Part shown: positions 3,544 to 14,393 of the stretch, in pieces | How positions within the stretch are numbered: position 1 is the stretch's first letter | Layout: the number at the start of each line of letters is the position of its first letter | Source: a virus | Taxonomy: Duplodnaviria > Heunggongvirae > Uroviricota > Caudoviricetes | Length of the DNA: 15,090 nucleotides | Direction: 5' to 3' (one strand) | IMG/VR virus record: IMGVR_UViG_2778261465_000004 | Coordinates: 1-15,090 of that record | Notes under the pieces: generated by a model | The model's database searches: none | What the model was told of the DNA's origin: nothing | The model's input: the letters and a program-made list of their open reading frames with translations, nothing else | Position numbers and translations under genes: made by a program

Positions 3544-4397
3544 GCACCATCCTGAAATGGGCGGGTAATAAAACCGCCATTATGTCCGAACTGAAAAAAC
3601 ACCTTCCTGCTGGCCCGCGACTGGTTGAACCTTTCGCGGGTTCTTGTGCTGTGATGATGGAGACGGATTACCCCAGCTATTTGGTTGCGGATATTAATCC
3701 TGATTTAATCAACCTCTATAAAAAGGTTGCCGCTGATTGTGAATCGTTTATATCTCGCGCCAGAGTTTTATTTGAGATCGCAAACAGGGAGGTGGCTTAT
3801 TACAACATAAGGCAGGAGTTTAATTACTCCACTGAAATTACTGATTTCATGAAAGCGGTATATTTCCTGTATCTCAATCGTCACGGTTACCGTGGTTTAT
3901 GTCGCTATAACAAGAGCGGGCATTTCAACATTCCCTACGGTAATTATAAAAATCCGTATTTCCCTGAAAAAGAAATTCGTGCATTTGCAGAAAAAGCCCA
4001 GCGGGCAACATTTATCTGCGCCAGCTTCGATGAAACGCTGGCAATGTTGCACGCGGGAGATGTGGTGTATTGCGATCCGCCGTATGACGGTACGTTTTCC
4101 GGCTATCACACTGATGGTTTCACTGAAGATGACCAGTATCACCTGGCATCCGTTCTTGAACATCGGTCATCAGAAGGACATCCAGTCATTGTTTCTAACA
4201 GTGACACATCCCTGATCCGTTCGCTGTATCGCAATTTTACTCACCACTATATCAAGGTAAAACGCAGCATCGGTGTGGCAGCTGGCGAGGGTAAATCAGC
4301 AACAGAAATCATTGCTGTTTCCGGGCCGTGCTGCTGGATGGGATTTGATTATTCGCGTGGCGTGGATAGTTCTGCCGTGTACGGAGTACGTGCATGA
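3540..4397 (+). CDS. dam: DNA adenine methyltransferase (Dam family, N6-adenine MTase)
   Basis: N-terminal KWAGNK and PFAGSCAV (AdoMet binding) plus catalytic DPPY motif (VYCDPPYDG). ATGA overlap with the upstream stop and with the A start. Confidence 0.9.
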
Positions 4398-6808
4398 CTC
4401 ATGCCGATATGAACAACTGCTGCGGCTTTAACGAGGCTGCCGCAGCATTCTCATGGAACAGCCCGAAAAAGGCCATTAACCCTTATCTGGACCCGGCGGA
4501 AGTTGCGCCGGTTTCTACGCTTTCAAACCTGATCACTCTGTACGCTGCCGATAACGAGCAGGAACAGTTGCGCCGCGAGGCACTGAGTGATCAGGTCTGG
4601 GAGCGTTATTTCTTTAATGAATCACGTGATCCTGTCCAGCGCGAAATGGAGCAGGATAAGCTCATTAGCCGGGCAAAGCTGGCGCATGAGCAGCAGCGTT
4701 TTAATTCAGACATGGTCATTCTGGCGGACGTCAACGCCCAGCCTTCCCATATCAGCAAGCCGCTGATGCAACGTATTGAATACTTCAGCAGCCTGGGCAG
4801 GCCAAAGGCTTATTCCCGCTATTTACGTGAGACGATTAAGCCATGTCTGGAACGACTGGAGCATGTACGCGACAGTCAGCTATCTGCATCTTTTCGCTTT
4901 ATGGCAAGCCATGAAGGGCTGGACGGCCTGCTGATCCTGCCTGAAATGAGTCAGGATCAGGTGAAACGCCTGTCCACCCTGGTAGCTGCGCATATGAGTA
5001 TGTGCCTTGATGCAGCTTGTGGTGATTTGTATGCCACCGATGACGTTAAGCCAGAAGAAATCCGCAAGACATGGGAAAAGGTGGCAGCGGAAACCCTGCG
5101 TCTGGATGTCATCCCACCTGCGTTTGAGCAACTCCGTCGGAAAAGAAACCGCCGTAAACCCGTGCCCTATGAACTCATTCCGGGTTCGCTGGCGCGTATG
5201 TTGTGCGCCGACTGGTGGTATCGGAAATTATGGAAGATGCGTTGCGAATGGCGGGAAGAGCAGTTGCGCGCTGTTTGCCTGGTCAGCAAAAAAGCATCTC
5301 CTTATGTCAGCTATGAAGCCGTGATGCATAAACGTGAGCAGCGCCGTAAGTCGCTGGAGTTTTTCCGTTCTCATGAACTGGTGAACGAAGACGGCGACAC
5401 GCTGGACATGGAGGATGTGGTAAACGCCAGCAGCAGCAACCCTGCGCATCGCCGCAATGAGATGATGGCCTGTGTTAAAGGTCTGGAGCTTATCGCGGAA
5501 ATGCGCGGTGACTGCGCCGTTTTCTACACTATCACCTGTCCGTCGCGTTTCCATTCCACGCTAAATAACGGCAGACCAAACCCGACCTGGACAAACGCGA
5601 CGGTAAGACAAAGCAGCGATTATCTGGTCGGCATGTTTGCTGCATTTCGTAAGGCGATGCACAAAGCCGGGTTGCGCTGGTATGGCGTGCGGGTGGCTGA
5701 GCCGCATCATGATGGCACAGTTCACTGGCACCTGTTGTGTTTCATGCGCAAAAAAGACCGCCGTGCCATCACTGCATTACTGCGTAAGTTTGCCATCCGT
5801 GAAGACCGCGAGGAGCTGGGCAATAACACTGGGCCGCGCTTTAAGTCTGAGTTGATTAACCCGCGCAAAGGAACGCCGACAAGCTACATCGCGAAATATA
5901 TCAGTAAGAACATTGACGGTCGTGGTCTGGCTGGCGAGATCAGCAAGGAAACGGGTAAATCTCTGCGTGATAACGCTGAATACGTGAATGCCTGGGCGTC
6001 TTTGCATCGTGTTCAGCAATTCCGCTTCTTTGGCATTCCGGGGCGTCAGGCTTACCGTGAACTGCGATTGTTGGCTGGTCAGGCGGCAAGGCAACAGGGG
6101 GACAAAAATGCAGGTGCGCCGGTACTGGATAACCCGCGTCTTGATGCCATTCTGGCTGCTGCTGATGCTGGTTGTTTTGCCACCTACATCATGAAGCAGG
6201 GCGGCGTACTGGTTCCCCGTAAATATCACCTCATCAGAACCGCTTATGAAATCAACGAAGAGCCGACCGCCTATGGCGATCACGGCATTCGTATTTATGG
6301 CATCTGGTCACCCATTGCAGAGGGCAAGATCTGCACTCATGCAGTGAAGTGGAAAATGGTTCGTAAAGCCGTTGACGTTCAGGAGGCGGCAGCCGACCAG
6401 GGCGCTTGCGCCCCTTGGACTCGTGGCAATAACTGTCCCCTTGCTGAAAATTTGAACCAACAAGGGAAAGACAAATCAGCTGATGGGGATACCAGGACGG
6501 ACATTACCCGCATGGATGACAAGGAGTTGCACGATTACCTGCACAGTATGAGCAAAAAAGAGCGCCGGGAACTGGCTGCAAGGTTACGCCTGGTGAAACC
6601 GAAACGGCGTAAAGACTACAAACAGCGAATTACAGACCATCAGCGACAGCAGCTCGTCTATGAACTGAAGTCCAGAGGATTTGATGGCAGCGAGAAAGAG
6701 GTCGATTTACTCCTTCGCGGCGGCAGTATTCCGTCAGGAGCAGGCCTGCGTATCTTCTATCGGAACCAGCGTTTGCAGGAAGATGATAAGTGGCGGAACC
6801 TGTATTAA
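4394..6808 (+). CDS. A: Rolling-circle replication initiator, P2 gpA family (HUH endonuclease)
   Basis: 804 aa. HUH-type motif VHWHLL (codons at 5723-5731) and paired tyrosines YIAKYISK (5885-5899), as in P2 A / phiX174 A-type initiators. Position after the early operon matches. Confidence 0.9.
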
Positions 6809-6900
6809 TTACGCGGGTTAACAATTCGTGCTCTTAATAATACCAGGCATTTCAGGCTGATGAACGTAAAAAAACGTTTTACATCAGTAAGATTATTATA

Positions 6901-6920
6901 TACTGTAAATATAAACAGTG
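6901..6920. promoter_or_regulatory. LexA box (SOS operator) TACTGTAAATATAAACAGTG upstream of the 6961 operon
   Basis: Perfect CTGT-N8-ACAG core (6903-6918) with an AT-rich spacer. A partial second site lies immediately downstream (ACAG at 6930-6933; left half GTGG). Candidate -35 TTTACA at 6878-6883. Confidence 0.7.
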
Positions 6921-6960
6921 GTTATATATACAGTATTACTTTGGTGTCATAGGAGGAAAG

Positions 6961-7149
6961 ATGCAGGACTATTTTTTGGAGTCTTTGAAGCTCCAGCGCA
7001 TTGATTTTTTTCTTAAGCTTGTAGCGGCTAGTGAGTGTAGTGATGAAGAGAAGGGGCTGGCTCTGCAGTGGGTTTCTGAATTGACTGATGAACTCATGGC
7101 AAAAATCAGAACCCACGAATACAACCGCTCAATGGATGTCATCAGCTGA
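6961..7149 (+). CDS. SOS-regulated small protein, possibly the antirepressor (Tum-like) module
   Basis: 62-aa ORF with AGGAGG ribosome-binding site 5 nt upstream, immediately downstream of the LexA box. Function inferred from position only. Confidence 0.6.
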   Translation: MQDYFLESLKLQRIDFFLKLVAASECSDEEKGLALQWVSELTDELMAKIRTHEYNRSMDVIS

Positions 7150-7159
7150 GGTGACCTTT

Positions 7160-7393
7160 ATGCGCATTGAAATAATGATCGATAAAGAGCAGAAGATTAG
7201 CCAGTCTACCCTGGACGCCCTTGAATCCGAGCTTTACCGCAATCTGCGCCCCCTGTATCCCAAAACGGTAATTCGCATCCGCAAAGGTAGCTCTAACGGT
7301 GTGGAACTGACCGGACTGCAACTGGACGAAGAAAGAAAACAAGTGATGAAGATTATGCAGAAGGTGTGGGAAGACGACAGCTGGCTGCATTAA
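7160..7393 (+). CDS. DinI-like protein
   Basis: 78 aa starting MRIEIMIDK and ending QKVWEDDSWLH, colinear with E. coli DinI (MRIEVTIAK...ETWESADDWF) as recalled. GAGGTGA ribosome-binding site 6 nt upstream. The longer track ORF from 7088 is rejected. Confidence 0.8.
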   Translation: MRIEIMIDKEQKISQSTLDALESELYRNLRPLYPKTVIRIRKGSSNGVELTGLQLDEERKQVMKIMQKVWEDDSWLH

Positions 7394-7552
7394 GAAAAGT
7401 TGCTGGCGTCTGAACTTGGTTCTGGCGTCAGCAAGGTTGAACAACGAGTACAGTGAGGCGTTAGGTGTGGCGTTTATTTGATGAGTGAACGCCCGTTCTG
7501 CGACAGGTTCGGAGATTAAGGTTGAAACTACGGGCAAAATACCATCTTTTTC

Positions 7553-7978
7553 CTACTTAATTGAGTCCAGTAACAAGTTACAGTTACTCTCATTGTAGAG
7601 AGAACGAGCAATTAGTGTTACCTGCTTTCCATTCATTCCCGGCTTATCCCATAACACAGCTTCTTGCGACGCCACAAATTCAGCATAATCAATTATGCGT
7701 TGTTCGTGATCTGGTTCCTCATAGCCAAAGTATGAGAGCGCATCGTTGTAAGCGTGGTAAGCTGCTTTCTGTAATATCTTGATATCGGCTGTAGGTACTT
7801 GCTCCGTGTAGCTAGGATCTAATTGTGTGCTACTGCCATAGAATGCACATGAAAGGTAAGATATTGATTTCTGTTGAGCTTTAGTTCCTTTCTCATAGTT
7901 TTTAGCTGTTACCGCCTGAACTGGGACGCTAACAAAGCTTGCAACCAGAATTAAAATTAATACGTAAAAGCTTTTCAT
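7553..7978 (-). CDS. Secreted/periplasmic protein of unknown function (cargo gene)
   Basis: 141 aa with classical signal peptide MKSFYVLILILVASFVSVPVQA (likely cleaved after VQA; no lipobox Cys). GAGGT ribosome-binding site 5 nt upstream. AT-rich relative to the phage backbone. Confidence 0.75.
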   Translation of the reverse strand: MKSFYVLILILVASFVSVPVQAVTAKNYEKGTKAQQKSISYLSCAFYGSSTQLDPSYTEQVPTADIKILQKAAYHAYNDALSYFGYEEPDHEQRIIDYAEFVASQEAVLWDKPGMNGKQVTLIARSLYNESNCNLLLDSIK

Positions 7979-8196
7979 TTTGACCTCAGCCGAAACGTTA
8001 GAGAGACTATCGAAATTTGTAAAACCCGTGGCGATTCAGTTTGAGATCCTCCCCCTTACATGATTTTTAATCAAATATATACTTTTGTAAGCATACCTGT
8101 TAACCGAATTATTTATTTTTAGAGATCTTCCGACATACTGATTATGCCCGCTGAGGAGTTCACCTTGCGTAAGGTCCGATTCGCTTTACTCGTCTG

Positions 8197-8297
8197 TGCA
8201 TGTCTATGCTGCATGAGATTGCATGATCGTTTGAGGATCGTTTTTGCTAAGGCCCGCCAGAACTGGCGGGCTTTTGCGTAGATCATGCACCTGCATG
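8197..8297. repeat. Cluster of five TGCATG/CATGCA motifs flanking a hairpin, just upstream of the cos-like motif
   Basis: TGCATG at 8197, 8210, 8220 and 8292; inverted copy CATGCA at 8284. Spacing of 10-13 bp between the first three. Confidence 0.4.
8252..8278 (+). terminator. Intrinsic terminator-like hairpin GCCCGCCAG-AA-CTGGCGGGC followed by TTTTGCG
   Basis: Perfect GC-rich stem followed by a T-run on the plus strand; sits in a GC-rich islet inside AT-rich cargo. Confidence 0.6.
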
Positions 8298-8320
8298 AAA
8301 ACCATTACATAAAGCGGGCA

Positions 8321-8339
8321 GGCGTGGCGGGGATACGAG
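8321..8339. other. Putative cos (cohesive end) remnant or variant
   Basis: GGCGTGGCGGGGATACGAG: the first 13 nt match the 19-nt cohesive end I recall for phage 186 (GGCGTGGCGGGGAAAGCAT; P2 GGCGAGGCGGGGAAAGCAC), the last 6 diverge. Location between the A/tum region and the portal fragment is where cos sits in P2/186 prophages. Confidence 0.35.
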
Positions 8340-8406
8340 CGCGCGCTTATTACTTTGATAGTACTCGGGTTATAATATGGATGACTATCTATCTCGGAGA
8401 ATGTAC

Positions 8407-10059
8407 ATGTCATTAGACTATATTAAAGAACAGTTGTCAGACTTTATTTCATCTGCAGAACCTGAGGTAATGGCTATTCAGGGTGAGTGGGGGATTGGGA
8501 AAACCTATACTTGGAATGCTTTCTTAAAGGAAAATAAAAATAAGATTGCATTTAATAGATATAGTTACGTCTCTCTTTTTGGTGTTAATTCATTGGACGC
8601 ATTAAAATACTCCATCTTTGAAAATACAATTACGAAAGATTTCATTGGAAACAAACCTAATTTAAAAACAGCAACACAAAATGCAAAGGGGCTTCTTGAA
8701 TCCTGCACTAGAAAGACCGCTCGTGTGTTAAAAGATACACCTTTTTTGAAAAATTTCACTACGACACTTGAGTCAATGTCATTTATGTCAATTACTAATG
8801 TTATTGTAGTCATAGATGACTTAGAAAGACGTGGTAAAAATTTAGAAGTGAAAGATGTCTTAGGGTTGGTTTCTTTATTGAAAGAACAAAAAAATTGTAA
8901 GGTGGTTCTTTTACTTAATAACGGGACAAGTGGTATGGATGACTACTCCACTTATAAAGAAAAGGTTATTGATAGAGAGATTACCTATAATCCTACTCCA
9001 GAAGAATGTGCAGTTATAGCATATAAAAATAATTCTGATGTTCATAAATTATTAAGCAAATACTCCATTTCCCTGGGTATTAAGAATATTAGGATACTGA
9101 AAAAAATAGAGCGGTTTTTGCTAGCCTTGTTACCTGGCATTAACGTTAATTTTGAAAAAATTGCAAATGAAGTCGCACACTCCTTAACTTTGTATTGTTG
9201 GAGTCATTACGCATTTACTCCAGATGGAGATGTACCATCATTGGAGTATATTAGAAATATGAGAAATATCTATATGCGTGATGAAAAAGAGGATGGAAAA
9301 GAAAAAAAATGGCTTAATACTTTGCTTATATATGATTATAAAAAAACAAACGAACTTGATGAAGTCCTTATAGACATGGTAAGGCATGGATATATTGATA
9401 TGAACAATTTCCAAAGGCAAGTAAGTCTAAGGAATGATGAACTTATCCGTGATAGTAAGCGAGGTTCACTGTTTGAAGCATGGAAGCTTTTCTATAATTC
9501 ATTTGAAGATAACCGAAATCAGGTTATTGATAATCTATATCAAGCGGTGGTTGGTGGGATAGAGTATGTAACTCCAAGTGACTTGGATAGTGTTGTCGGA
9601 CTGTATAGAGATTTAGGTGAAAATATTAAAGCAAGTGAATTAATAAGTAAATTTATTAATTACGGCAATGATGCTCTTAAGGAATATGTTCAATCTATTT
9701 ACATGAATGTTCATCCTATAAAAGATGCTGAGTTAAAGTCAAAAATCCAAGATTATTCTACTACTTTAAATCTGGATGGTTCTATAAAGGATGTTCTAAT
9801 AAAATTATCAAGTCAGAATGGTTGGTCTGATAGGCACGAGGAAATATTGGATGCTGCCTCAGAGGATGACTACTATGATTTATTTAAAAAAGTCATTCTT
9901 GATGGTGGTGATTCAATAATAGCTACTGCTCTTAAGTTTGGTGGGTATAGCAATGGTTCAGAAAGAATGAAACGCATCGGAGAAAAAGCGAGAAATGCTT
10001 TGATAAGAATTGGAAATGAGTCGAGCATTAATAAAATACGTGTTAGACGGTATTTGTAA
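8407..10059 (+). CDS. KAP-family P-loop NTPase, soluble (no predicted transmembrane insert); cargo gene, candidate anti-phage defence protein
   Basis: Walker A GEWGIGKT (GxWGxGKT KAP signature), Walker B VIVVIDDLERR (hhhhDDLxR), then VVLLLNN. Start chosen at the ATG 6 nt after GGAGA (8407); in-frame ATGs at 8377 and 8401 are alternatives. No long hydrophobic segment seen. Strongly AT-rich. Confidence 0.8.
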   Translation: MSLDYIKEQLSDFISSAEPEVMAIQGEWGIGKTYTWNAFLKENKNKIAFNRYSYVSLFGVNSLDALKYSIFENTITKDFIGNKPNLKTATQNAKGLLESCTRKTARVLKDTPFLKNFTTTLESMSFMSITNVIVVIDDLERRGKNLEVKDVLGLVSLLKEQKNCKVVLLLNNGTSGMDDYSTYKEKVIDREITYNPTPEECAVIAYKNNSDVHKLLSKYSISLGIKNIRILKKIERFLLALLPGINVNFEKIANEVAHSLTLYCWSHYAFTPDGDVPSLEYIRNMRNIYMRDEKEDGKEKKWLNTLLIYDYKKTNELDEVLIDMVRHGYIDMNNFQRQVSLRNDELIRDSKRGSLFEAWKLFYNSFEDNRNQVIDNLYQAVVGGIEYVTPSDLDSVVGLYRDLGENIKASELISKFINYGNDALKEYVQSIYMNVHPIKDAELKSKIQDYSTTLNLDGSIKDVLIKLSSQNGWSDRHEEILDAASEDDYYDLFKKVILDGGDSIIATALKFGGYSNGSERMKRIGEKARNALIRIGNESSINKIRVRRYL

Positions 10060-10092: not shown

Positions 10093-10491
10093 CTAATTCA
10101 ATGAATAATCTTTGAAGGCTATTATTTTTTTCTTTAGCCAAATATTAATTTCTACAAGTCTTTTTTGTAAAGGAGTTAACTCATTTCGCACAAAAACGCA
10201 ACTGGCTTTTTCTATATCCCCAAACCCCCCAACATTGTTTGGCATTATCCCCATCATCTGCGGCGGCACACGATGCGCCGCCATCATGTCATCCCGACTT
10301 ACGTTCTTGATGTTAAGAAATTCATCCTTCGCCGCGACTTCTGACAATGGGATGATCTGAAGCCCGTCTTTTTTGCCGTTAGGCGAGTACATAAACAGGT
10401 TGCGGAAGTTGCCTGGACCTTTGGCACTTTTCATCGCGTTGCGGAGGTTGTTCACATCCTCCTGATTCTGCGCGGCGTCGGTCATGTACAT
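10093..10491 (-). pseudogene. Q: 3' fragment of portal gene (P2 Q-like); N-terminal two-thirds deleted
   Basis: Leftward-reading ORF whose stop faces the cos-like site, as Q does in P2. Assigned as portal from orientation and position; no start context and no upstream late genes. Last ~30 codons are AT-rich, suggesting the cargo junction lies inside the 3' end. Confidence 0.5.
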
Positions 10492-10503
10492 GATGAAGCC
10501 TGC

Positions 10504-11532
10504 ATGGCGGTACTGCGCGGTGGACTGGCCGCCGCAGGCACGGTGCTGCGAGTACTGGCATCTGGTCCACTGGCGATGCTGCGCGTTGCCCTGTATGCCA
10601 TATCTGGTCTGTTAGGTGCTCTGCTCAGTCCGATAGGTCTTGTGGTTACTGCACTGGCGGGCGTGGCGCTGGTTGTCTGGAAATACTGGCAACCCATCAC
10701 CGCATTTCTCGGTGGCGTGGTGGAAGGATTCAAAGCGGCGGCAGGTCCCATCAGTGCAGCGTTCGAACCGCTTAAGCCCGTGTTCCAGTGGATTGGCGAC
10801 AAAGTGCAGGCGCTGTGGGGCTGGTTTACTGATCTGCTGACGCCCGTTAAGTCGACCTCTGCCGAACTGCAGAGCGCAGCGGCAATGGGGCGGCGATTCG
10901 GGGAGGCACTGGCGGAAGGGCTGAATATGGTCATGCATCCGCTGGACTCCCTGAAATCCGGCGTTTCCTGGTTGCTGGAGAAGCTCGGCATTGTCAGTAA
11001 AGAGGCCGCAAAGGCAAAACTGCCGGAAAGCGTGACGCGTCAGCAACCTGCGACGGTGAATGCAGACGGTAAAGTGATGATGCCATCGGGTGGTTTTCCA
11101 TCATGGGGATATGGCTTTGCGGGGATGTATGACAGCGGCGGGTATATCCCGCGCGGGCAGTTTGGCATCGTCGGTGAAAACGGGCCGGAAATTGTTAACG
11201 GCCCGGCAAATGTGACCAGCCGGAGAAATACAGCTGCACTGGCTGCCGTTGTTGCCGGAATGATGGGCGTTGCTGCCGCGCCAGCAGAGCTTCCACCGTT
11301 GCACCCTTTGGCACTTCCCGCGAAAGGTGGAGAAGCAATTGTGAGTCGCGCAGCCACTGTGCCGCTCGTTCAACGGATTGAGGCACCGACGCAGATCATC
11401 ATTCAGACGCAGCCAGGACAAAGTGCGCAGGATATTGCGCGGGAGGTGGCACGCCAGCTTGATGAACGTGAACGCAGGCTGAAGGCAAAAGCCAGGAGTA
11501 ACTACAGCGATCAGGGGGGATACGACGCATGA
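10504..11532 (+). pseudogene. T: 3' fragment of tail tape-measure gene (P2 T-like); N-terminal part deleted
   Basis: 342-aa frame ending 4 nt into gpU. Ala/Gly/Leu-rich hydrophobic segments typical of tape-measure C-termini. Frame is open upstream to 10345 with no ribosome-binding site; P2 T is far longer. Confidence 0.65.
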
Positions 11533-13403: not shown

Positions 13404-13430
13404 AGAACCTGCTACGGCAGGTTTTTATTC
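13404..13430. terminator. Intrinsic terminator AACCTGC-TACG-GCAGGTT + TTTTTATT shared by convergent ogr (+) and the BRCT gene (-)
   Basis: Stem 13406-13412 / 13417-13423 followed by a T-run on the plus strand; the minus-strand gene's stop (13425-13427) lies inside the T-tract. Confidence 0.65.
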
Positions 13431-13907
13431 ATCTGGGATCTCACCCGTTTCAAGAAAATGTATAAAGCCAGGCTCATCTATGATGATTGTGCCTTTCATC
13501 CTGGCTGCCGATACTTTTGATGGGCCTGCATTGTAACCGCAACAGAGCATCTGAAGGCTTTGGGTTATAGAGGTTCTTACCGTTAATCCTTGTTCATTCG
13601 CCTTATCAACCAATCTTTCTTTATCTGCTTTCTTAAATCCGGTGAAACACACATCGAATGTATTTTTTTTCGGACCAGACTGCTTAGTGAGATGTGAGTA
13701 GCTTTCGGGGAGGAATGACGCGCATTCCTGAATGGCTTGTTCTGGTGAATCGTACTGTTTAAGAATGCGGTCTTTTCGGAAGGTTTTTATTCGATCGGTG
13801 TTCTTACAAATGCCCTGTATATGATTTTCGCTATAACTGATGCTCTGTATAGAGTGAACAGCGATACGACCATTTGCATTGATGTAAACAAAGTGAAGTT
13901 CTTCCAT
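13425..13907 (-). CDS. Small BRCT-domain protein with WYL-like N-terminal domain (cargo gene next to attR)
   Basis: C-terminal ~80 aa (FTGFKKADKERLVDKANEQGLTVRTS...GYNAGPSKVSAARMKGTIIIDEPGFIHFL) align by eye to the BRCT domain of NAD-dependent DNA ligase (LTGSLS...RDDAKARL...GAKVAGSVSKKTD...[24 protein letters not shown]). N-terminal ...HIQGICKNTDRIKTFRKDRIL resembles the C-terminal strand region of WYL domains (tentative). AGAGG ribosome-binding site 7 nt upstream. Confidence 0.75.
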   Translation of the reverse strand: MEELHFVYINANGRIAVHSIQSISYSENHIQGICKNTDRIKTFRKDRILKQYDSPEQAIQECASFLPESYSHLTKQSGPKKNTFDVCFTGFKKADKERLVDKANEQGLTVRTSITQSLQMLCCGYNAGPSKVSAARMKGTIIIDEPGFIHFLETGEIPDE

Positions 13908-14030: not shown

Positions 14031-14393
14031 TGGTGGAGCTGGCGGGAGTTGAACCCGCGTCCGAAATTCCTACATCCTCGGTACTACATGCTTAGTCAGT
14101 CTTTACATTCGCTTGCCAGCTGCGGACGGACACGCCACTAACAAACTAGCCTGATTAAGTTTTAACGCTTCAACCCCAGGCAGGGCTTCCACGCGATCTC
14201 TTTTGGGTTTGACCTCTCTTGATCCCCGTCCTAAGAGCGGAGGCTAGGGAGAGAGGGCTCTAAGCAGGTTATTAAGCTGCTAAAGCGTAGTTTTCGTCGT
14301 TTGCGACTATTTTTTGCGGCTTTTTACGAGGCCAACCGCCCCTCGGCATGCACCTTGGGTTTCGCAAATCCCGTCGAATCCAGAATCAGCCCC
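14031..14393 (-). ncRNA. ssrA: tmRNA (transfer-messenger RNA, SsrA), 363 nt
   Basis: Reverse complement reads GGGGCTGATTCTGGATTCGACGGGATTTGCGAAACCCAAGGTGCATGCCGAGGGGCGG...CGGGTTCAACTCCCGCCAGCTCCACCA, matching enterobacterial tmRNA across the tRNA-like ends. Confidence 0.95.

Follow-up and report, generated by a model that had tools for sequence, protein, structure and literature searches.

Phage 186 carries tum (146 aa) after its replication gene A, where it is driven by the LexA-repressed promoter p95. The annotated p95 consists of the hexamers TTCACA and TACTGT separated by 18 nt, and the second of these forms the first six bases of the 186 LexA site. Both halves of Tum are fused in a single reading frame, which is followed by orf97. 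The C-terminal half (residues 71 to 145) is DinI-like and is also translated on its own as Tum95.5, starting at an internal GTG that has a separate ribosome-binding site; according to the 186 record, these internally initiated, truncated DinI-like forms of Tum “modulate SOS induction”. Tum itself binds the CI repressor directly (Shearwin 1998, as cited in Lemire 2011, PMC3121763). In Fels-2 and PSP3, tum is split by a stop codon, and the antirepressor activity of PSP3 resides in the upstream gene (Lemire 2011, PMC3121763). The PSP3 annotation names the two parts tumA (60 aa, “similar to 5' end 186 tum; UV induction of prophage”) and tumB (77 aa, “similar to dinI and 3' end of 186 tum”).

In Salmonella, the Fels-2 operon STM2726-2728 is mutagen-induced up to 14.8-fold, which places it among the strongest members of the LexA regulon. 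In E. coli HS, the Phollow study (Nat Microbiol 2025, PMC12055606) reports that an in-frame deletion of ECHS_RS04495 (“tum”) abolishes mitomycin C-induced lysis, and that lexA(Ind-) likewise abolishes it. In RefSeq, ECHS_RS04495 is a 189-bp “hypothetical protein” located directly 5' of a DinI-like gene.

[quoted passage not shown] In these operons, dinI comes first, so that the gene order is reversed. Non-polar deletions of the Gifsy dinI genes leave induction unchanged, and the same study documents trans-acting antirepressors for Gifsy and Fels-1 and reports that removing Fels-2 from LT2 has no effect on Gifsy-2 induction (Lemire 2011, PMC3121763). LexA control can also be exerted through a double operator. 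[quoted passage not shown]

Here, we analyze a 15,090-nt stretch of viral DNA (hereafter, the window), which we find to be a P2/186-like prophage of the Fels-2 type (Felsduovirus). Directly after gene A it carries a module that is already known, being a near-identical copy of the tum-dinI SOS operon of Fels-2 and of the HS prophage DuoHS. This module is very probably an SOS operon in which a LexA-repressed promoter drives a Tum/TumA antirepressor and a DinI-like protein.

Results

An SOS operon of the Fels-2 type

The window contains the following features relevant to the operon and its surroundings. LexA sites are scored by a heterology index (HI), which is described below.

1-711, - strand: integrase
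715-1365, - strand: CI immunity repressor, 186-type (Pfam Phage_CI_repr, 1.5e-28; Phage_CI_C, 2.1e-30)
Between CI and gene A: Apl-like gene, then CII (PF06892), then Dam methylase
4394-6808: replication gene A, directly 5' of the SOS operon
6878-6883, + strand: putative -35 hexamer TTTACA of the SOS promoter, preceded by an A-tract (186 p95 counterpart)
6901-6906, + strand: putative -10 hexamer TACTGT, inside LexA box 1 (by analogy with 186 p95)
6901-6920: LexA box 1, TACTGTAAATATAAACAGTG, the sole exact CTGT-N8-ACAG in the window
6916-6935: predicted LexA box 2, CAGTGGTTATATATACAGTA (HI 6.3), sharing 5 nt with box 1
6951-6956: AGGAGG, ribosome-binding site of the 62-aa gene
6961-7149, + strand: tum/tumA-type antirepressor gene, 62 aa, assigned by profile homology to the N-terminal part of 186 Tum
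7148-7153: GAGGTG, ribosome-binding site of the DinI-like gene, overlapping the TGA of the 62-aa gene
7160-7393, + strand: tumB/DinI-like gene, 77 aa (Pfam PF06183)
7400-7434, + strand: hairpin after the DinI-like stop, with an 11-bp stem and without a U-run; a weak terminator candidate

An initial annotation, made from the DNA letters, had described two tightly linked small genes with strong ribosome-binding sites. Its coordinates were right, and the two genes are separated by a gap of only 10 nt. The parallel that it drew with 186 also holds, given that p95, its LexA site, and tum likewise follow gene A. The same annotation had proposed a comparison with orf97 of 186; we found no orf97 homologue 3' of the operon.

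Generic scans of the window returned neither a + strand promoter nor a terminator. The former result is explained by the -10 hexamer, since TACTGT is a poor match that such a scan misses. The hairpin at 7400-7434 is possible but unconvincing as an operon terminator, and the z-score for the whole segment is -1.28. Rfam found no RNA family at the operon; its sole match in the entire window is a tmRNA. Several other reading frames overlap the two genes. A 101-aa ORF (7088-7393) uses an upstream ATG in the same frame as the DinI-like gene, but relatives conserve and annotate the 77-aa form. The - strand ORFs at 6922-7116, 6969-7142, and 7142-7537 are shadows of the + strand frames, which are conserved and under purifying selection.

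The module is closely matched in named phages and prophages. Over a 640-bp region, the window shares 97.3% identity with Fels-2, 97.8% with E. coli phage 813R9, and about 98% with the E. coli HS prophage, and in all three the module lies directly after gene A. Fels-2 (STM2728 and STM2726.1) and DuoHS (ECHS_RS04495 and ECHS_RS04500) have the same promoter, the same operator, and both genes, and the 62-aa protein is identical at 61 of 62 residues to both STM2728 and ECHS_RS04495. They differ from the window in carrying a third operon gene (STM2726 and ECHS_RS25360, respectively), which is missing here, and in their CI repressors. They are also intact, whereas the window prophage is internally deleted. 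The gene order shared with the HS prophage breaks off at the portal gene and resumes at the tape-measure gene, at about position 10505; this deletion removes roughly 17 kb comprising the head, lysis, and most tail genes. Since the portal-to-tape-measure genes have been lost, the host prophage is defective. Here its switch cannot yield phage and may be a relic. Among 5426 complete E. coli genomes, not one contains the deletion junction.

A predicted colicin-type double LexA operator

To score LexA sites, we used an HI of approximate scale, trained on 27 E. coli sites; the training sites themselves span 1.4 to 9.8. The initial annotation had noted a near-consensus LexA box before the two genes, and this box (6901-6920) proves to be the best site in the 15-kb window, with an HI of 3.8. 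None of 200 shuffled windows reached this score (median best shuffle score, 12.3). At the sequence level, LexA control is thus indicated by the best box in the window, which overlaps the putative -10 hexamer as it does in p95. The -35 and -10 hexamers are spaced by 17 nt in the window, compared with 18 nt in 186. The A-tract and TTTACA are kept in most of the 33 related loci that make up our conservation set, which was obtained from one scan of species-representative genomes with the single 62-aa protein.

A LexA box (HI, 0.8 to 7.2) occurs at the same place in 31 of these 33 loci, 20 to 77 nt 5' of the start codon. Across the related loci, the spacer and flanks of box 1 vary, while its CTG...CAG is retained.

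The window has a second LexA box (6916-6935), an addition to what had been noted before. With an HI of 6.3, it is the second-best site in the window, and the third-best is far worse (12.8). The two boxes overlap in the five bases CAGTG, and in one half-site of box 2, GTG replaces the invariant CTG. A second box at +15 (HI, 5.6 to 9) is found in about 21 of the 33 loci, as in the window. In contrast, 186 and PSP3 each have a single LexA box, and in these phages and in the single-box loci the HI at position +15 exceeds 22. Two overlapping 20-nt boxes with an HI in the functional range define a double SOS operator, and positions 6901-6935 have exactly this form.

The 42 nt of the operator match about 1200 plasmid records, and the same operator is found on the ColE1-type Klebsiella plasmid NZ_CP031807.1, between a TTGACA element and a colicin-like bacteriocin gene that is accompanied by immunity and lysis genes. 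The plasmid operator TATACTGTATATAAAACCAGTGGTTATATGTACAGTATT and window positions 6899-6937 TATACTGTAAATATAAACAGTGGTTATATATACAGTATT are identical at 35 of 39 nt. The bacteriocin operator boxes score HI 3.1 and 7.9, against 3.8 and 6.3 for those of the window. By likeness to colicin operators, LexA would be expected to bind at box 2 as well. The arrangement of two overlapping 20-nt boxes is shared with the colicin type, although in the window it drives a prophage antirepressor, not a bacteriocin. We infer from these sequence comparisons that the Fels-2 clade may use a colicin-type double box to hold its antirepressor tightly off.

The two genes encode the halves of a split Tum

The 62-aa protein shows no similarity to 186 Tum by BLASTP. 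A profile built from 32 of its diverse relatives matches 186 Tum at residues 5 to 47 (33.9 bits; E 1.2e-12, for a single directed comparison), and an hhalign comparison with aligned relatives of the Tum N-terminus gives a probability of 96.6% (E 7e-10). Matches to PHROGs families support this independently: the 62-aa protein matches phrog_698 (3.6e-38), phrog_8554, and phrog_1993 (E 0.002), and 186 Tum matches phrog_698 (E 2.4e-5), phrog_8554, and phrog_1993. Judged by these profile comparisons, the 62-aa protein and the N-terminal part of 186 Tum are homologues. Its position agrees with this assignment. It lies directly 3' of gene A in an element with a 186-type CI, and the order of gene A followed by tum is common to 186, PSP3, Fels-2, HS, and the 33 genome loci.

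An exhaustive HMMER search recovered 66 cluster representatives of the 62-aa family, down to 36% identity. D3, E7, R13, C26, W37, E40, L41, and L45 are near-invariant within the family. An AlphaFold2 model of the protein is a helical hairpin (pLDDT, 85.8) with helices at residues 2 to 23 and 28 to 61 and C26 in the turn. Foldseek searches of this hairpin against the PDB gave nothing significant, only generic helical matches (best E 1.1), and a profile search of PDB sequences with the 62-aa family gave no match. Pfam, NCBIfam, and PADLOC contain no model for the protein. The Gifsy antirepressors gave no match in the searches with the 62-aa family and are, as far as tested, unrelated in sequence.

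The second protein belongs to the DinI family, as the initial annotation had proposed. It matches Pfam DinI (PF06183) over model positions 1 to 63 of 63, with an E of 6.6e-23 and 81.3 bits against a cut-off of 24.2. It also matches phrog_189, “RecA filament binding protein DinI”. In the alignment to 186 Tum and to E. coli DinI, which had been suggested as a check, the DinI-like protein is 41% identical to 186 Tum residues 71 to 145 (E 3e-24), and it matches E. coli DinI (PDB 1GHH and 7YWA; E 2.7e-6). E. coli chromosomal DinI has the same Pfam family and length, and shares the N-terminal MRIE and the C-terminal W-E-x-x-D-W helix; KVWEDDSW of the window protein aligns with ETWESADDW of E. coli DinI. 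The window protein is nevertheless a distant paralogue of E. coli DinI, nearer to the Tum C-terminus (41%). It scores 42.7 bits against the 111 required by the NCBIfam equivalog for chromosomal DinI (NF007893), and is thus a phage TumB-type paralogue, not dinI itself. A role for it in modulating host RecA, which the initial annotation had suggested, is plausible.

Because the two window proteins match the two halves of Tum, we conclude that the module is a split Tum. This bears out the split organization that had been suspected, with the 62-aa ORF corresponding to the N-terminal part, as profiles show, and the DinI-like ORF to the C-terminal part. PSP3 resembles the window in having a split tumA/tumB behind a LexA box after gene A, although its TumA belongs to another subfamily (it defines phrog_1993, as opposed to phrog_698 for the window) and is only about 22% identical. 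In 186, both halves are fused and orf97 follows, whereas the window is split and lacks orf97. Relatives of the 186 Tum N-terminus reach no more than 117 aa among the best 120, most being 63 to 90 aa, and several 63-aa relatives are named “Tum protein”. Thus, the split form seems to be the commoner one, and the fused Tum of 186 the exception.

The antirepressor gene is widespread and conserved

Of 5426 complete E. coli genomes, 1125 carry the module, and every copy is annotated “DinI-like family protein | hypothetical protein”. The 33 loci of the conservation set come from Escherichia, Citrobacter, Klebsiella, Enterobacter, Serratia, Pantoea, Erwinia, Tatumella, and other genera. Lack of the 62-aa ORF in related prophages had been named in the initial annotation as an observation that would count against the module; the ORF is carried by all 33 loci. 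Over a 46-codon core in 11 diverged loci, dN/dS is 0.03 to 0.11, with synonymous sites near saturation. The 62-aa gene is therefore real and strongly constrained.

A DinI-like gene follows 9 to 12 nt downstream in about 20 of the 33 loci. About 11 of the 33 have kept the LexA box and the 62-aa gene with no DinI-like gene within 8 kb. Thus, it is the small gene that consistently accompanies the LexA box, and the DinI-like gene is dispensable.

Conservation of the antirepressor far exceeds that of the CI repressors found alongside it. The window CI shares 61% identity with Fels-2 CI, 41% with HS CI, and 31% with 186 CI. Across the 33 loci, the antirepressor is 71 to 100% identical, compared with 38 to 71% for the N-terminal domain of CI and 26 to 58% for its C-terminal domain. 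Either the antirepressor recognizes a small conserved surface of CI, or antirepressor and repressor pairs have been uncoupled by recombination. Given that CI is only 41% and 61% identical to those of HS and Fels-2, against 98% for the antirepressor, cognate pairing in the window is an assumption of the mechanism outlined below.

Discussion

How the switch would operate

In an undamaged cell, LexA would occupy the double operator at 6901-6935, covering the -10 and start region of the promoter. DNA damage would activate RecA and lead to LexA self-cleavage, releasing the two-gene transcript. By analogy with 186 Tum, the Tum hairpin protein would then bind CI (715-1365) non-covalently and block its binding to operators; with CI off its operators, the early lytic promoter would open. 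The most likely role of TumB is to bind RecA filaments and adjust the SOS signal, without itself causing induction. With a double box, repression should be very tight and basal expression low, and derepression may come late. In this scheme, the binding of Tum to the window CI, the occupation of both boxes by LexA, and the role of the DinI-like protein are inferred from the related systems; the requirement for the 62-aa gene and for a cleavable LexA has been shown experimentally in the 98%-identical HS copy.

Three other accounts of the locus can be weighed against this one. A LexA-like site that is no more than a chance AT-rich palindrome, with the operon being constitutive or transcribed by read-through from gene A, would suit the AT-rich composition of the region and the failure of the generic scan to find a + strand promoter. 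Yet shuffled windows of this composition never attain the score of box 1 (0 of 200), the position of the box is conserved while its spacer and flanks diverge, and the architecture is that of the annotated 186 p95. Moreover, the Fels-2 copy is damage-induced and induction in HS is LexA-dependent (PMC12055606), which leaves a chance palindrome hardly credible. Very improbable, if slightly less so, is an exchange of roles in which the DinI-like protein is the inducer and the 62-aa ORF a leader or accessory peptide. Databases name the DinI-like gene only, with one phage record calling it “SOS operon TUM protein” and another “SOS induction modulator”, and the 186 record ascribes modulation of SOS induction to truncated, DinI-like Tum forms. 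However, removing just the 62-aa gene in frame is enough to abolish induction in HS (PMC12055606), and about a third of the related loci (11 of 33) pair the LexA box with the 62-aa gene and have no DinI-like gene nearby. The upstream gene of PSP3 is the reported antirepressor and non-polar dinI deletions in Gifsy are without effect on induction (PMC3121763), and the low dN/dS of the 62-aa core (0.03 to 0.11) is likewise at odds with an accessory peptide.

It is also possible that the module no longer serves self-induction, and is instead a relic, a trans-acting antirepressor of co-resident P2/186-like prophages, or a trigger of remnant replication or excision. The deletion of the portal-to-tape-measure region in the window prophage points in this direction, as does the conservation of the antirepressor (71 to 100%) relative to CI (26 to 71%), a pattern expected of a broadly acting protein; trans-acting antirepressors are, furthermore, known for Gifsy and Fels-1 (PMC3121763). 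Conversely, the module itself (both genes and the operator) is intact, as are CI, Apl, CII, and gene A, and all of them are almost identical to their counterparts in functional phages; the deletion could therefore just be of recent date. Its junction is absent from all 5426 complete E. coli genomes, and Gifsy-2 induction in LT2 is indifferent to the removal of Fels-2 (PMC3121763). We therefore regard a module with no part in self-induction as unlikely, although it is considerably more probable than either of the preceding alternatives, and retain the LexA-repressed tum-dinI operon acting on the CI of its own prophage as the preferred reading.

A broad-specificity antirepressor?

The near invariance of the antirepressor across divergent CI repressors invites a further, tentative proposal: that Tum of the Fels-2 type is a broad-specificity antirepressor, and that in this clade the double operator, which 186 and PSP3 lack, raises the damage threshold. 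We consider this possible, if doubtful. Because the antirepressor hardly varies while CI does, its contact site on CI would have to be a small conserved surface, possibly the CALETG..L.WL.TG segment in the DNA-binding domain. Neither the broad specificity nor the damage threshold was found stated in the literature examined. If the proposal is true, a broad Tum could cross-induce co-resident or incoming P2/186-like phages of other immunity types, and cross-induction would be possible even from a defective remnant such as the window prophage.

Consequences for annotation

The gain in biology from this locus is small, as split tum operons have been published for Fels-2 and PSP3, and a knockout of a near-identical gene already exists in HS. 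What remains of value is the gap in annotation, the double operator, and the finding that the antirepressor is conserved while the repressors diverge. Roughly one in five complete E. coli genomes carries the 62-aa gene, as do many other Enterobacterales. The gene makes such prophages SOS-inducible, yet is “hypothetical” in RefSeq and of “unknown function” in PHROGs, while its DinI-like neighbour is sometimes mislabelled Tum.

Operator and conservation of the SOS operon

The SOS operon is preceded by an operator (6901-6935) that, judged by its sequence, is a colicin-type double overlapping SOS box, made up of one box at 6901-6920 and a second at 6916-6935. Of 39 nt compared, 35 are identical in the operator that precedes a colicin-like bacteriocin operon carried by plasmid NZ_CP031807.1. 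This double SOS box is kept in approximately 21 of 33 related loci drawn from species-representative genomes, while phages 186 and PSP3 are without it, unlike the window.

We find that the 62-aa Tum/TumA-type antirepressor (6961-7149, + strand) is 71-100% identical to that of the window across these related loci (L010-L042), whereas the CI repressors, its presumed targets (715-1365, - strand, in the window), reach just 26-71%. In one locus (L010), Tum is 100% identical to the window's; the CI N-terminal domain is 69% identical and the C-terminal domain 28%. The best-conserved part of CI among the related loci is an N-terminal segment, ...WVIQCALETG.SL.WL.TG.G.

There is an annotation gap for the antirepressor across databases. 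It is labelled "hypothetical" in RefSeq and "unknown function" in PHROGs (phrog_698, 8554, 1993), and has no model in Pfam or NCBIfam. Furthermore, the label "SOS operon TUM protein" is sometimes given to the DinI-like gene instead.

Variable cargo slot

The stretch from the SOS operon to the portal gene includes a variable cargo region and holds the following features:

7553-7978, - strand: 141-aa ORF whose N-terminus resembles a signal peptide (MKSFYVLILILVASFVSVPVQA)
8144-8416, + strand: broken-ORF-like stretch reading ...AKARQNWRAFA*MHLHENHYIKRAGVAG...
8377-10059, + strand: KAP-family P-loop NTPase, 560 aa (Pfam PF07693, E 1.3e-8)

The NTPase gene occupies the slot, with the SOS operon on one side and the portal gene on the other, and its product is a hit to PDC-S49, which PADLOC lists as a candidate defence system (E 2.2e-25). 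The 141-aa ORF, also part of this region, is convergent with the SOS operon and had no match in Pfam and PADLOC searches.

At the sequence level, the 8144-8416 stretch resembles a disrupted version of an ORF of 62-84 aa (…DAQARQYWRAF…HENHYIKRAGVAG…), which is intact immediately 3' of tumA, the split N-terminal Tum gene, in two Pantoea/Erwinia loci (L035 and L039). Within the stretch, 149 bp (8198-8346) are 94% identical to E. coli HS intergenic DNA upstream of the cargo gene. One possibility is that the stretch marks a conserved edge of the cargo slot or acts as its promoter.

Internal deletion and probable integration site

The prophage is internally deleted, with a junction at ~10505 (within ~10093-11532) that was present in 0 of 5426 complete E. 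coli genomes. At the junction, a 132-aa portal fragment (- strand) is joined to a 342-aa C-terminal part of the tape-measure protein, so that ~17 kb present in the prophage of E. coli HS, with genes for head, lysis and tail, is lost here.

The gpD end carries three features:

13425-13907, - strand: 160-aa ORF, weakly similar to BRCT (E 0.002)
14031-14393, - strand: tmRNA (ssrA), tag ANDENYALAA
14608-15090, - strand: smpB

The tmRNA gene and smpB flank the prophage at this end, and their position points to integration at ssrA, which is the integration site of Fels-2 too. The 160-aa ORF is placed in between, and also matches PADLOC PDC-S48 (E 4e-7).
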